25,680 nucleotides of DNA. Source: Candidatus Kapaibacterium sp. Its GTDB lineage: Bacteria > Bacteroidota > Ignavibacteria > Palsa-1295. The notes below the pieces were generated by a model. The model worked only from the letters and a program-made list of their open reading frames with translations, ran no database searches and was not told the origin of the DNA. Where the stretch lies: the NCBI GenBank assembly GCA_035712525.1, contig DASTAO010000076.1:1-25680 (forward strand), read 5' to 3'. The stretch's first letter is position 1; the number at the start of each line of letters is the position of its first letter. This document shows positions 7,001 to 25,534 of this stretch, piece by piece. Made by a program: the position numbers and the translations under genes.

Positions 7001-7056
7001 ACGTCAAATATTTTATTAACAATCTATCAACATATCATATATTTATGCTATTTTAA

Positions 7057-7088
7057 TTTGGAATTTTTCAAAATATTTCGTATATTTG
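7057..7088 (+). promoter_or_regulatory. Complete Bacteroidota-type promoter TTTG-N20-TATATTTG
   Basis: -33 TTTG at 7057-7060, -7 TATATTTG at 7081-7088, 20-nt spacer. Confidence 0.8.
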
Positions 7089-7108
7089 CAACGTAAAAAA
7101 CAGTCGTC

Positions 7109-7135
7109 AAAAGAGTCCGCCCGGCGGGCTCTTTT
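7109..7135. terminator. Terminator-like hairpin just downstream of the 7057-7088 promoter
   Basis: AAAAGAGTCCGC-CCG-GCGGGCTCTTTT: 12-bp stem with one G-U pair and short A/T tracts on both sides. Confidence 0.6.
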
Positions 7136-7272
7136 CATAAGGGAGCAAATGGTAATGAGGTGCACAACGATAAGTATGATATATAAGGAGTTATGGGGGG
7201 TGCTTTTGATTTTGAATTTCCGACAATACTTTCAAATCAGATGGGGTTTTCAGTGGAGTAACCGATAGCAAC

Positions 7273-7842
7273 TTGAAAAAGCTTATTACCATATTCGGCC
7301 CAGGTCAATGCATCGCAGGTGATCCTGTCTATGACAGGGCTTACCGTCTTGGCTGCCTGCTTGCTGATGCCGGGTTTGCCATTGTTACCGGCGGGTATGA
7401 TGGAGTAATGGAAGCGGCTTCGAAAGGGGCGCATGAACATCACGGCTGGACGATCGGCGTTACGGCGAATGTTTATTTTAATCGCGACCGGATGATGAAT
7501 CCGTATGTAAAAAAGGAAGTACGGGTTTCGAGTGCGGTCGATCGGTTGATGGAGCTTATCTCGCTTGCCGATGCGTATGTTGCTTGTGGCATTTCTCCGG
7601 GGACGATCGCAGAAGTATCGATGGTCTGGGAATATTTCAGTAAGAAATTTATTGAGGTTAAGCCGCTTATCTTGCTTGGTGCTGAGTGGAGGGCGTATTG
7701 CGATGCGTTGTTTTCGCAGGATGGGTATCGGGATAAAGAACACTATGTGACGATTGTTAGCACTCCTGAAGAAGCGATGGAAATATTGATAACGAAATTT
7801 GGTCGACAAGAAAACCTGCCTGAGCTTAGTATCCTCGGTTAG
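7273..7842 (+). CDS. LOG/SLOG-family Rossmann-fold nucleotide-binding protein
   Basis: TIFGPG, AIVTGGYDGVMEAASKGA, DRLMELISLADAYV, variant PGTIAE motif; TTG start. Confidence 0.85.
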   Translation: MKKLITIFGPGQCIAGDPVYDRAYRLGCLLADAGFAIVTGGYDGVMEAASKGAHEHHGWTIGVTANVYFNRDRMMNPYVKKEVRVSSAVDRLMELISLADAYVACGISPGTIAEVSMVWEYFSKKFIEVKPLILLGAEWRAYCDALFSQDGYRDKEHYVTIVSTPEEAMEILITKFGRQENLPELSILG

Positions 7843-7843
7843 T

Positions 7844-7884
7844 CGTCATTGCTTCGTCGGGCTAAAGCCCTCCTCGCAATGACG
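7844..7884. repeat. CGTC-tagged palindromic repeat with an internal GGGC-TAAA-GCCC hairpin
   Basis: CGTCATTGC (7844-7852) and GCAATGACG (7876-7884) form a perfect 9-bp inverted repeat; the inner hairpin spans 7859-7870. Confidence 0.7.
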
Positions 7885-7920
7885 GTGTTGCATAATATAT
7901 GACGAGTATTTTCTGTGCCG

Positions 7921-7928
7921 TATTTTTG
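7921..7928 (+). promoter_or_regulatory. -7 element TATTTTTG, 5 nt before the MFS start codon
   Basis: CG-TATTTTTG-AA matches TAnnTTTG. Confidence 0.55.
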
Positions 7929-7933
7929 AAGTA

Positions 7934-23167: not shown

Positions 23168-23188
23168 ATCGAAAGCCTTGCTTTCGAT
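23168..23188 (-). promoter_or_regulatory. Perfect 9-bp hairpin between the upstream ORF and the barrel gene
   Basis: ATCGAAAGC-(3 nt)-GCTTTCGAT; not followed by a U-tract on the minus strand. Confidence 0.55.
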
Positions 23189-23223
23189 TTGAAAATAATA
23201 ACTAGAAATGGGAAGGAAGCCGG

Positions 23224-23580
23224 TTAAGCTTTCGGAGGACGGAAGGGTGAACTGGTTATTCCTGATAACAGATCAAACGGTTCGTCCGCTATGACAAGTT
23301 GTTGTTTCGGTTTACTGGTTGAAAGAACAAATTCGCAGGTGAGTGTTGGCTGTGTCGGGGGAGTTTGAATTCTGACTCCCGATTCCTCAGAATTTCCGGA
23401 CTGACCGGCTGCCTTTTTTACCTGGCATTTACCCTGGCAGCAGGGCTTCGTTGGGTTTTCGCAGCGGCTGGCAAAGAAATCCTTCGCAAAGGTCGAATAC
23501 GAAAACCATAGCACCGGCGCACCGTTATAATACAGACCCAACGAGAGTAACAGCGCAATATGTAAGAGATTACGGTGCAT
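23224..23580 (-). CDS. 118-aa Cys-motif membrane protein ending in FRPPKA (candidate DUF2946/CruR-like regulatory upstream ORF)
   Basis: Likely start ATG 23580 (ORF track: GTG 23646). N-terminal hydrophobic segment, CENPTKPCCQGKC, C-terminal SSPFRPPKA; 92 nt upstream of the barrel gene. Confidence 0.7.
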   Translation of the reverse strand: MHRNLLHIALLLSLGLYYNGAPVLWFSYSTFAKDFFASRCENPTKPCCQGKCQVKKAAGQSGNSEESGVRIQTPPTQPTLTCEFVLSTSKPKQQLVIADEPFDLLSGITSSPFRPPKA

Positions 23581-23692
23581 CTTGGAATTCGTAGAACAGA
23601 AAGCCCTTTCAATTCGTTTTCTTTCGCTCTGTCGGTGGGAAATCACGACTGTGCCACCTCCACCGGCATAGAATTCATTAAACCATATCGTT

Positions 23693-25279
23693 ATGAGTCA
23701 AGACCAAATAGAAACGCCATTGCTTCATGAGCATGGGGTTAAGCATTCCAAGATCAATTTTAATTTATCGTCCGAAGAATTATACGCCGAAGCATTGTCG
23801 CGCGGTGAAGGCCGGCTGGCTTCCAATGAGTCGCTCGTTGTCTCGACCGGTAAATTTACCGGTCGATCGCCAAAAGATAAGTTTATCGTCCGTCATCCTG
23901 ACAGTGAAAAACATGTCTGGTGGGGTACGGTCAACCGTGATATCTCACAGGAGAATTTCGAAAAGCTGTATTCTAAGATGAAGGCAGCAATGAATGAGAA
24001 AGAACTCTTCGTTGCTGATCTCTTCGCCGGTGCCGATCCGACGTATCGTCTGAACGTCCGTGTCATAAATGAGTATGCCTGGCATAACCTCTTCTGTCAG
24101 AACCTCTTCATTAAGCCGACTGCTGCCGAGCTTGCCGATCACAACGTTCAGTTTACCGTAATTGATATTCCGTCGGTCAAAGCCGATCCAGCAACCGATG
24201 GTACGAACAGCGAGACCTTCATTGTCGTAAATATTGAAAAAGGTCTTATTCTCATCGGTGGTACAGAGTATGCCGGTGAAATGAAGAAGTCGATCTTTTC
24301 AACACTTAATTATTTGCTGCCGCTTCGCGATGTATTTCCGATGCACTGCTCGGCGAACATCGGCCCCAACGGCGACACCGCCATCTTCTTCGGTCTTTCC
24401 GGAACCGGCAAGACGACGCTTTCTGCCGATCCGAACCGCCGCCTTATTGGCGACGATGAACATGGCTGGAGCGATAAGGGCGTCTTCAATTTCGAAGGTG
24501 GATGCTATGCAAAAACTATTAAACTTTCGAAAGAGAACGAGCCGGAGATCTGGAATGCGATTCGCCGAGGTGCTGTCCTCGAGAATGTCGTTCTTAACGA
24601 ACAAGGTGTTCCTGATTACAACGATACTTCGAAAACGGAAAATACCCGTACCGCCTATCCACTTGAATTCATCGAGAATTCGGTGTTGCCATCGGTTGGC
24701 GGGCATCCGAAAAATATCATTTTATTGACGGCCGATGCCTTTGGGGTATTGCCGCCGATCTCGAAGCTTACCAAAGAACAGGCGATGTATCACTTTATTA
24801 GTGGCTACACCGCAAAGCTTGCCGGTACCGAACGTGGTGTTACCGAACCGGAGCCGAACTTCTCGACTTGCTTCGGTGCGCCGTTCATGGTGCATCATCC
24901 AAGCGTTTATGCCGAGCTTCTCGGTAAGCGTATCGATGAGCATGGCTCGAAGATCTGGTTGGTGAATACCGGCTGGACAGGTGGCCCATACGGGATCGGT
25001 AAGCGAATGAATTTGCCATACACCAGAGCAATGGTAAATGCAGCATTGAATGGCATGCTTGATACTGTCGAAACGGAGCTCGATCCTTTCTTCGGATTAC
25101 ATGTGCCAAAATCGGTGCCTGGCGTTCCGAACGAGGTCTTAAATCCACGAAACACTTGGGATGATAAATCAGCCTATGATCGCGATGCTAAAGAATTGGC
25201 CGGCAGGTTCATTGAGAACTTTAAGAAATATGCTGCCGGAACAAGCGAAGCGATTTGCAACGCCGGGCCGAAAGGATAA
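23693..25279 (+). CDS. pckA: Phosphoenolpyruvate carboxykinase (ATP)
   Basis: [63 protein letters not shown]. Confidence 0.97.
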
Positions 25280-25300
25280 CGGATTCTTCTTTTAACTACT

Positions 25301-25329
25301 AAGCCTGCCGAATAACGGTGGGCTTTTTT
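25301..25329 (+). terminator. Intrinsic terminator of pckA
   Basis: AAGCCTGCCG-AATAA-CGGTGGGCTT followed by a T-run. Confidence 0.8.
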
Positions 25330-25458
25330 ATTTCTCCAAAATCGAAAGTACCCTCCATAACTTATTTAATATCACCCTAACTGGTGTACACCTCACTTCT
25401 TTCTCCCTCGCCAAAAAGTTTGGGAATGGAAGCTTTTAGATGTCTCATTGTGTATGTG

Positions 25459-25490
25459 CAAATATACGAAATATTAATAAAAAATCCAAA
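25459..25490 (-). promoter_or_regulatory. Complete Bacteroidota-type promoter TTTG-N20-TATATTTG pointing toward the pckA 3' end
   Basis: -33 at 25490-25487, -7 at 25466-25459; 32/36 identical to the promoter at 7055-7090. Confidence 0.8.
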
Positions 25491-25514
25491 TTAATATATA
25501 ATAAATATATGATA

Positions 25515-25534
25515 TGTGTATAAATTGTGGATAA
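25515..25534 (-). promoter_or_regulatory. Two tandem consensus DnaA boxes
   Basis: Minus strand TTATCCACA (25534-25526), AT, TTATACACA (25523-25515); both fit TTATNCACA. Confidence 0.7.

Follow-up and report, generated by a model that had tools for sequence, protein, structure and literature searches.

A dispersed family of gene-free promoter-leader cassettes, probably portable and carrying a putative DnaA operator, in a soil Kapabacteria genome

Correia elements (Neisseria), ERIC and the pneumococcal BOX are small, gene-free, multi-copy intergenic elements that place promoters and hairpins near genes and are transcribed with those genes as leaders. Correia elements are bounded by terminal inverted repeats with TA duplications and contain an IHF site. 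Among transposable elements, the outside end of IS50/Tn5 contains a DnaA box, and Tn5 has a transposase and inverted ends. The cassettes analysed here are also small, gene-free, multi-copy and intergenic, and bring a predicted promoter and a hairpin beside genes; in contrast to Correia elements, no inverted ends or duplications were found, and the promoter is internal and complete rather than made at a junction. Like IS50/Tn5, they may be mobile DNA with a DnaA box in the end region for a host factor to bind but, unlike for Tn5, we know of no transposase-like enzyme or second end. REP/REPIN elements with RAYT (Y1) transposases are likewise short, hairpin-forming intergenic repeats in many copies, and the genome has RAYT-like genes with REP arrays of their own beside them, but these REPs are unrelated in sequence to the cassettes.

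As in the DnaA-controlled promoters of dnaA, nrdAB and Bacillus subtilis sda, TTATNCACA 9-mers lie just upstream of the promoter; here, however, the putative operator sits on a dispersed cassette, in ~18 copies, in either orientation and with no obvious replication gene. A perfect box and an imperfect one that point the same way, 2 bp from each other, recall the Escherichia coli oriC array (PMC6727663). A close parallel is the putative mobile promoters (PMPs) of Matus-Garcia, Nijveen and van Passel (2012), which, as summarised in PMC3575422, are mostly pairs at ~92% identity; that summary also names Correia and ERIC elements among mobile elements harbouring functional promoters. PMPs share with the cassettes that homologous, promoter-bearing non-coding stretches precede unrelated genes, in one genome and across genera, and that regulatory leader parts travel with the promoter (PMC3575422). 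The definition of PMPs (at least 80% identity over at least 50 nt before non-paralogous genes) also describes cassette copies. The cassettes differ from these PMPs in number (~70 copies), in identity (73-85%) and in a fixed multi-module anatomy; they also have a conserved 45-nt leader box and a DnaA-box pair.

The genome examined is a 2.8-Mb soil Kapabacteria assembly (81% complete, 489 contigs), and the window is a 25,680-nt stretch of one of its contigs. An initial annotation of the window had described a cassette in two inverted copies (here copy A, plus strand, and copy B, minus strand) and proposed an undescribed dispersed family in which a strong promoter is joined to a conserved downstream block. 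When recomputed, its alignments proved exact: 7013-7090 (+) and 25534-25457 (-) are identical at 66/78 positions without gaps, and 7156-7216 and 25395-25335 at 46/61. The two copies are also the longest inverted repeat found by a repeat search of the window (79 nt, 85%). The 9-mers, the -35 and -10 hexamers, and the AAAAG..CTTTT hairpin and AGGGAG tract of copy A had been placed correctly (Table 1). The count of two, however, was a large underestimate. Iterated nhmmer searches of the genome, a check that the annotation had proposed, gave 71-80 promoter/cassette matches and 68 core matches. As ~70 places in the genome have this architecture, the likeness of copies A and B far exceeds what chance would give, which supports the family as proposed. 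An Rfam scan of the window (E up to 1) gave no match at copy A or copy B.

Table 1. Positions of the cassette parts and of the neighbouring pckA terminator within the window
Feature	Position	Strand	Basis or remark
Copy A, whole inserted segment, iscS stop codon to LOG start codon	7001..7272	+	272 nt; gap 0-20 nt in five same-genus genomes
Copy A, tandem head-to-tail DnaA-box-like 9-mers TTATTAACA, 2 nt, CTATCAACA, both weak	7013..7032	+	Sequence, subfamily alignment, information profile
Copy A, A/T-rich imperfect palindrome (ATCA..TGAT type), boxes to -35 hexamer	7033..7052	+	Conserved in ~20 copies
Copy A, predicted promoter TTGGAA-17-TATATT then TG; reads also as TAnnTTTG	7058..7088	+	Promoter scan, 12-mer TTCGTATATTTG
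Copy A, GC-rich terminator-like hairpin, A-run before, T-run after	7109..7135	+	-17.1 kcal/mol, z -4.4
Copy A, purine tract and core (ATGAGGTGCACA .. TGA .. TAA .. GTTAT)	7140..7205	+	Model R1 match; nhmmer profile
Copy B, tandem DnaA-box pair TTATCCACA, 2 nt, TTATACACA; both fit TTATNCACA, the first a perfect consensus	25515..25534	-	Sequence
Copy B, A/T-rich palindrome region, boxes to -35 hexamer	25491..25514	-	Sequence, subfamily alignment
Copy B, predicted promoter, TTTGGA .. TATATT then TG	25459..25490	-	Sequence
Copy B, purine tract and core, orphan copy	25346..25409	-	Model R1 match; no same-strand gene downstream
pckA intrinsic terminator	25301..25325	+	Terminator scan

The stretch shared by the cassettes contains a match to the promoter consensus, TTGGAA-17-TATATT, and a nearly invariant 12-mer, TTCGTATATTTG, with 65 occurrences in the genome against 0.5 expected. 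A core with matching orientation follows this 12-mer in 47 of the 65 cases, and 55 of the 68 cores have a family promoter at most 320 nt upstream. Together the cassettes make up 0.6% of the genome's DNA. Copies are 73-85% alike, and many pairs reach 80-94% over 50-400 nt, with the likeness confined to the span of the cassette and near-identical pairs adjoining different genes. Since the copies are only 73-85% alike, their spread was not recent. The family is found in some genera of one taxonomic family in the class Kapabacteria, in which the number of cores per genome (model R1) ranges from 0 to 64; the core is kept across at least five genera, and is absent from 15/15 genomes of genus g7 (model R1).

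The modules run in the order promoter (TTGGAA/TTGACA-17-TATATT), 5' stem-loop, often a GC hairpin, purine tract and 45-nt core. Between the boxes and the -35 hexamer lies a palindrome, which in some copies includes a perfect 14-mer, TCAAATATATTTGA. A strong GC hairpin (mean -17.5 kcal/mol) is present upstream of 33/65 cores and in nearly all cases ends no more than ~7 nt from the core model; its 9-nt tail has at least four T in 21 of the 33, and it may terminate transcription. At orthologous loci the hairpin is kept and the letters of its stem differ; it is the only structurally conserved part of the predicted leader. The hairpin of copy A was not called by a simple terminator scan because its A/T ends were absorbed into the stem. 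In a plain promoter cassette one would not expect a terminator-like hairpin between promoter and gene. Behind copy B, the pckA terminator hairpin, read on the minus strand, is the sole obvious stop for the predicted transcript. In a search of sequencing runs, the locus sequence matched DNA runs only.

For the downstream block the initial annotation had suggested either a small RNA or a micropeptide gene, and the core agrees with neither. RNAalifold on 29 cores returned 0 consensus pairs, mutual information across 134 cores from six genera gave neighbour effects only and no Watson-Crick covariation, and single-sequence folds of cores and whole leaders were no better than shuffles (z of -0.5 and -0.3 for the core). 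The covariance check suggested earlier yields no consensus structure in the core block. A coding reading, for which frame B looks open, is ruled out by indels that break the frame and by third positions that do not vary. Between ATAA and GTTAC, indels of 1 nt change the frame and leave GTTACAG conserved; the 'start' GTG and an ACA 'codon' hardly vary and have no synonymous changes, and the length of the frame ranges from 13 to 57 codons. It is unlikely that AGGGAGG reflects a general Shine-Dalgarno mechanism, because near candidate starts here such motifs do not rise above background (17.8% versus 16.7%). An informal comparison by eye also set aside sigma-70, sigma-54, ECF and Bacteroidota -33/-7 promoters as readings of the core, the spacing and conserved positions being a misfit. 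An rrn-type Nus antiterminator (boxB-boxA-boxC) was likewise rejected for the hairpin-plus-core: the four 16S leaders recovered from the family (genera g1, g6 and g8) differ, with a boxA-like motif GTTCATTGA(C/A)A, and core and cassette profiles found no match in them at E up to 10. The core is most likely a leader signal for a trans-acting factor, as single-stranded RNA or DNA.

In five same-genus genomes the end of iscS abuts or overlaps the start of LOG (gap 0-20 nt), against 272 nt here, and by this comparison copy A is an insertion between the two genes. Filled and empty orthologous sites were seen at four loci: iscS-LOG, rplK (empty in five same-genus genomes), ferritin and the stretch behind pckA (both empty in relatives). 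Occupied loci differ between genomes. Some are shared across species and even genera, and at the loci common to genomes G001 and G004 only the -35/-10 hexamers, hairpin, purine tract and core are conserved. Alignments of cassette copies gave no terminal inverted repeats and, as in the initial annotation, neither these nor target duplications were seen; the empty site of copy A in relatives spans only 0-20 nt and is too diverged for a target duplication to be read. Four metagenomes gave no empty-site variant, and contigs from three soil samples carry the same sequence at the locus, with no empty site; no polymorphism was seen within the population. The inverted ends TGTGGATAA..TTATCCACA, suggested by copies in genome G010, were not found together on the same copies. 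Searches for a transposase found none for the cassette, and no TnpB was found. IS200/IS605 or RAYT elements were rejected as mobilisers: their Y1 genes carry unrelated REPs of their own and do not track the core, being present in all 15 genomes of g7 (no core), and the search found none of them in two genomes that have 14 and 36 cores. The annotation had foreseen that the cassette might be a remnant of a known IS or MITE; copy A is an insertion, as this would have it, but matches no known IS or MITE. We class the family as MITE-like, a 'mobile promoter' whose DnaA operator is probable.

A same-strand gene lies at most 500 nt behind 51/65 copies (p = 4e-6). The other 14/65 face none, and copy B is such an orphan, as had been noted. 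Genes behind the cassettes are diverse (rpsL, tuf, rplK, rplM, rplO, thrS, skp, lpxC-fabZ, an ECF sigma factor) and belong to unrelated Pfam families; those behind box-bearing copies have no replication theme. From these positions, most copies would be 5' leaders of ordinary genes, and only orphans like copy B would give a free-standing RNA.

The box pair consists of two head-to-tail 9-mers 2 bp apart (an 11-nt period), a spacing and direction that match the low-affinity sites at which DnaA binds cooperatively in E. coli oriC (PMC6727663). A search for the 20-mer pair pattern gave 18 occurrences here, 1-12 in genomes of genera g5, g6, g9 and g2, and none in g7, g8, g4 and g3 (0-1 for a reversed-pattern control); the pattern is found only in genera that have the core. 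The 11-nt period is shared by the 18 pairs here and by at least 40 pairs in the genomes of ten relatives. The earlier proposal of a DnaA-box pair therefore holds as a genuine conserved module, present in four other genera, but the pair is carried by only 21/68 copies, both window copies included. With the pair on only about a third of copies, DnaA control cannot define the function of the family. The cassettes hold 25/96 of the assembly's TTATNCACA matches in 0.6% of its DNA, and many copies carry the perfect universal box TTATCCACA; the copy A boxes, TTATTAACA and CTATCAACA, each have at least one mismatch to TTATNCACA. In the subfamily alignment TTAT and ACA are conserved and positions 5-6 vary, position 6 (C in the consensus) often being A. 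Pairs occur in either orientation and are mostly inverted in relatives, where 16/27 sampled pairs have a family promoter at most 140 nt away, mostly at 24, ~36 or 79 nt. The host has dnaA, and a perfect box lies upstream of that gene; dnaA is on another contig than the window, ~2.7 kb from one cassette. The pair is most likely a cooperative DnaA binding site acting as an operator.

We therefore assign both stretches to a family of modular, gene-free intergenic cassettes, at least 68 in number, which are probably portable promoter-leader units: MITE-like, lacking terminal inverted repeats and, in about a third of copies, with a probable DnaA operator. Each cassette would have entered an intergenic spot and would supply parts to the gene behind it: a strong housekeeping-type promoter, a 5' stem-loop in the transcript, a GC hairpin in about half of cases, a purine tract and the 45-nt A/U-rich box. 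This box, kept at the nucleotide level without folding or coding, would be read by a trans-acting factor. In the box-bearing third, the two 9-mers and the A/T-rich palindrome lie just upstream of the promoter; DnaA bound to the pair would make those promoters respond to the state of this replication initiator, and together these cassettes would soak up DnaA.

The box pair could bind some protein other than DnaA, such as a lineage-specific transcription factor or a cassette-moving enzyme, with the match to TTATNCACA a coincidence in A/T-rich DNA amplified by spread. We think this doubtful, though it has points in its favour: enrichment of TTATNCACA follows automatically from copy number, position 6 is C or A beside the conserved TTAT and ACA, and the genes downstream have no replication theme. 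The pair pattern is also absent from all 15 genomes of g7, whose origins therefore do not use this exact layout. Such a reading leaves the perfect box TTATCCACA on many copies and the head-to-tail, 2-bp layout of cooperative DnaA arrays (PMC6727663) unaccounted for, and no candidate alternative protein was found. Alternatively, the cassettes might act in replication control and not in transcription, as dispersed sites like datA or DARS, titrating DnaA or changing its nucleotide state, with the promoter incidental. In datA and DARS2, DnaA boxes adjoin an IHF site, and the A/T-rich block beside the pair fits the IHF consensus, WATCAANNNNTTR, in many copies (e.g. TATCAAATATTTA); the ~18 pairs also hold more than a quarter of the assembly's consensus boxes. 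That two thirds of the cassettes have no boxes, that pair-promoter distances are discrete in several genera and that cassette orientation strongly favours the downstream gene make this improbable.

Mobility itself may be questioned. The cassettes could be the leader of an old regulon passed down vertically, in which the core is a cis-site for a global regulator, with many losses in relatives; they occur at some of the same loci across species and even genera with their functional parts conserved, their 73-85% likeness gives no sign of a young burst, and many translation genes carry one. This seems slightly less probable still, because iscS-LOG is contiguous or overlapping in five same-genus relatives, an ancestral-looking coupled state, close genomes have between 0 and 64 copies, the occupied loci differ between genomes and near-identical pairs adjoin different genes. 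Least probable of all, and very unlikely, is that each cassette is itself a gene, for a small RNA or micropeptide, under its own promoter. The 14/65 orphan copies would yield a free RNA of ~130-150 nt, and ~50 copies have AGGAGG followed by a GTG opening a frame of at least 13 codons, which is notable because SD-like motifs are otherwise at background in this genome. Yet the indels break that frame, GTG and ACA barely vary, frame lengths scatter, the core has no consensus structure, covariation, excess folding energy or Rfam match, and most copies lead into ordinary genes.

On the preferred reading of a portable promoter-leader family, it is conceivable, if on the doubtful side, that a mobile cassette has spread a strong DnaA-operated promoter and a 45-nt leader signal through one bacterial lineage, replacing the native promoters of dozens of operons and forming a distributed DnaA sink. 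If so, the rewired operons would include rplM, an ECF sigma factor and redox enzymes, their expression would be tied to the replication initiator, and the sink would comprise over a quarter of the consensus boxes in the genome. More generally, the family would represent large-scale natural promoter replacement by a portable cassette, reaching core translation operons (rpsL, tuf, rplK and thrS). A ready-made putative DnaA operator on dispersed DNA would be a route for replication status to control unrelated genes, and the dispersed pairs a possible route for titrating DnaA away from the origin. The phylum of the host has unusual mRNA leaders and translation start signals, and conservation of the core without fold or coding points to a leader-reading factor. 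The family also explains part of the assembly fragmentation in these genomes, and it gives a promoter consensus for an uncultured class.

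The initial annotation described a cassette in two inverted copies, copy A between iscS and the LOG gene and copy B after pckA. The sequence letters of both copies match that description and both ungapped alignments were confirmed, with 66/78 identities in block 1 and 46/61 in block 2; no inverted repeat in the window is longer than block 1 (79 nt, 85%). The pair is thus real, but the number did not hold. In the own genome, G000 (a 2.8-Mb assembly of 489 contigs, 81% complete, with the window as contig C76), a BLAST-type search returned >30 related places, iterated nhmmer gave 71-80 matches to the promoter/cassette profile, and the downstream block, the core, gave 68 when profiled by itself. 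The assembly contains 65 occurrences of the promoter 12-mer TTCGTATATTTG, where 0.5 are expected, and 47 of them have a same-orientation core within 330 nt downstream. Conversely, 55 of the 68 cores have a family promoter at most 320 nt upstream (median spacing 72 nt, range 51-262). The host is a soil member of Kapabacteria: its window PckA is 83% identical to that of 'Ca. Kapaibacterium' MAGs, and the sequencing runs containing the window locus are soil metagenomes.

Coordinates of the features discussed, in the window unless a contig or locus is named
Feature	Position	Strand	Remark
Copy A, block 1	7013-7090	+	
Copy A, block 2	7156-7216	+	
REP-like hairpin	7843-7887		CGTCATTGC .. GCAATGACG; between LOG gene and next gene
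Part of it matched in metagenomes	7848-7885		
Copy B, block 2	25395-25335	-	
Copy B, block 1	25534-25457	-	
Promoter back to back with copy B	25560-25603	+	TTG .. TATATTTG; gene start near 25603, signal peptide encoded
Y1 transposase gene, full length	C372:8203-8544		G000
Y1 transposase gene, full length	C149:14739-15071		G000
Y1 transposase gene, full length	C286:5536-5874		G000
Y1 transposase gene, full length	C338:2766-3107		G000
Heptanucleotide repeats	L185:365-400		relative G010
Heptanucleotide repeats	L189:235-290		relative G010

Read 5' to 3', a cassette can open with a box pair, two 9-mers TTAT-n-(C/A)-ACA placed head to tail 2 nt apart and present in only about one-third of copies; behind the pair lies an A/T-rich palindrome (ATCA..TGAT type). 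Next come the promoter (TTGGAA or TTGACA, 17 nt, TATATT then TG), a short stem-loop right at the 5' end of the transcript as predicted, and a stretch of variable make-up, where additional hairpins or REP-like inserts can occur. A strong GC hairpin (mean -17.5 kcal/mol), with an A-run before it and a T-rich tail after it, is found in 33 of 65 copies, and the distance from its end to the core profile is almost always 0-7 nt; that of copy A reaches -17.1 kcal/mol (z -4.4). A purine tract (AGGGAGG) leads into the core of ~45 nt, whose information profile shows the blocks GTG, G-G-A-A (GTGCACA or GGTACA), TGA, TAA and GTTAC(A/G), and a subfamily-specific tail closes the cassette. Neither window copy matched Rfam at E up to 1.

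Several further elements accompany the cassettes. Heptanucleotide tandem repeats lie 3' of the core in two genera, as (GGATGAA)n on G000 contigs C35, C467, C248 and C429, and in G010 also as (CTAAAGA)n, (GAGGACT)n and (TTTTGAC)n; given their 7-nt period they cannot be coding, and variation in run length could alter leader length or expression. A pyrimidine-rich block with a hairpin (..CCACCCCAACCCCTCC TTGAAAA GGAGGGG..), another dispersed repeat family, recurs before or after the core beside several G000 cassettes (C359, C354, C7, C487, C159). G010 has two different core variants arranged in tandem, ~160 nt apart, ahead of a single gene (L141, L156, L185, L186, L189, L190); one variant always has ..AAGTTATCCACA behind it, a perfect DnaA box 3' of the core. 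In genus g5, copies have one more conserved block (ATGTGTAAATTTATAGCACCAC), 40-60 nt upstream of the core (L134, L148, L175, L176, L174, L139, L152); both window copies lack it. Its GCACCAC is complementary to the core GTGGTGC, and in L174 both partners are changed (GCACCTC / GAG-TGC); block and core could form a long-range pairing, though not a general one. Dozens of different contigs in four soil metagenomes match the REP-like hairpin behind the LOG gene, so this palindromic repeat is common to many soil bacteria; a related hairpin (..TCGCAATGAC) occurs within G010 cassettes.

The distribution of the family points to both gain and age. In five same-genus genomes the iscS end abuts or overlaps the LOG gene start, where G000 has the 272 nt of copy A. 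The cassette is missing from relatives after pckA, ahead of the conserved rplK leader and ahead of the ferritin gene. (The ~100-nt leader directly upstream of rplK, conserved genus-wide and also in a neighbouring genus (L209-L215), may be the L1/L11-operon autoregulatory leader; the G000 cassette lies upstream of it.) Four soil metagenomes contain the same filled site and showed no empty-site joints. A sequence-only covariance model of the core, R1, found 64 copies in G000 and 0 to 62 in 34 other genomes of the same taxonomic family, with copies in genera g1, g2, g5, g6 and g9 and none in 15/15 g7 genomes. Occupied loci differ between genomes, and several are common (C444 with G001; C68 and C114 with G004). 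At the two where the locus alignment holds, C444 and C68, only the -35/-10 hexamers, hairpin, purine tract and core are conserved and the rest has diverged; hairpin stem letters differ while the hairpin stays, so its structure is maintained. It follows that the cassette parts are selected for where they stand and that the family is old. Within G000 the copies share 73-85% of their sequence, and a few younger pairs reach 84-94%.

None of the tested mobiliser candidates accounts for the spread. No TnpB was found, nor were inverted ends or target duplications of the cassette seen. G000 does have Y1 (IS200/RAYT-type) genes, but the REP arrays beside them are their own and unrelated to the cassette. 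Every g7 genome has Y1 genes although g7 lacks the core, and two core-carrying genomes yielded none. Three of the four full-length Y1 genes in G000 have hairpin repeats on both sides (3-22 occurrences in the genome), an arrangement known from classic REP/RAYT systems; the repeats bear no relation to the cassette, and around the C338 gene none were found.

What, then, is the core? The proposal of a small RNA or micropeptide was not borne out. RNAalifold on 29 copies gave 0 pairs, mutual information over 134 copies from six genera revealed neighbour and lineage effects only and no Watson-Crick covariation, and the window cores fold no better than shuffles (z -0.5 and -0.3), which together rule out a folded RNA. 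In favour of a coding sequence, most copies have an open frame of 13 codons or more from the conserved GTG. However, the ATAA-to-GTTAC spacing varies by 1 nt, both within G000 and between genera, so the frame shifts whilst GTTACAG is kept; 'start' and 'Thr codon' hardly ever deviate from GTG and ACA, respectively; and the stop falls anywhere from codon 13 to 57. These features exclude coding. Nor is AGGGAGG a typical ribosome-binding site in G000, since SD-like motifs are about as frequent near candidate gene starts as in the background (17.8% versus 16.7%). An rRNA-type antiterminator was likewise rejected: the four recovered 16S leaders of the taxonomic family have a different boxA-like motif, GTTCATTGA(C/A)A, and do not match the profiles.

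The DnaA-box pair of the initial annotation fared better, as a recurrent module of a minority of copies. The cassettes, 0.6% of the DNA, hold 25 of the 96 assembly matches to TTATNCACA and 7 of the 25 perfect boxes TTATCCACA. With one mismatch allowed, the 20-mer pair pattern occurs 18 times in G000 and 1-12 times in ten genomes of g5, g6, g9 and g2 (reversed-pattern control, 0-1), and is absent from g7 (0/15), g8, g4, g3 and the other g1 genomes; the pair is thus confined to core-bearing genera. Sampled pairs in relatives have a family promoter within 140 nt in 16/27 cases and a core within 500 nt in 14/27; they are mostly inverted relative to transcription and, where a promoter was found nearby, mostly 24, about 36 or 79 nt from it. 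In the box-bearing subfamily TTAT and ACA are conserved and positions 5-6 vary. The layout resembles E. coli oriC, where a perfect-consensus box and an imperfect one that point the same way, with 2 bp between them, support cooperative DnaA binding (PMC6727663). G000 encodes DnaA, with a perfect box upstream of dnaA. Enrichment, co-distribution with the core, the oriC-like layout and the presence of DnaA make DnaA a likely ligand; the data are also compatible with the docking of a different protein that has a similar site, and we give predicted binding by DnaA an even chance. The genes served by the pair show no replication theme. The pair of copy B lies between two divergent promoters and could act on both.

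Read most simply, the cassette would provide promoter and 5' leader to whatever gene stands behind it. A same-strand ORF begins within 500 nt after 51/65 scorable cores (binomial p = 4e-6). The remaining 14, including copy B, face an opposite-strand gene; such orphan copies would yield short free RNAs ending at the neighbouring gene's terminator. The downstream genes are mutually unrelated: LOG-family protein, ECF sigma factor, DUF1800, alcohol dehydrogenases, thioredoxin, SnoaL, ferritin, Skp, LpxC-FabZ, RecQ, IspH, PurT and others, together with ribosomal proteins L13, L11, L15 and S12, EF-Tu, ThrRS, RsgA and Dus. The subfamily without boxes is prominent before translation genes.

Among described systems, the 'putative mobile promoter' (PMC3575422) comes closest, along with mosaic repeats that bear promoters, Correia and ERIC elements for example. 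New here are the fixed anatomy of promoter, hairpin and core, a 45-nt core conserved across genera, the reach of the cassette into core translation operons and, judged by its sequence, a putative DnaA-type box pair carried by dispersed DNA.
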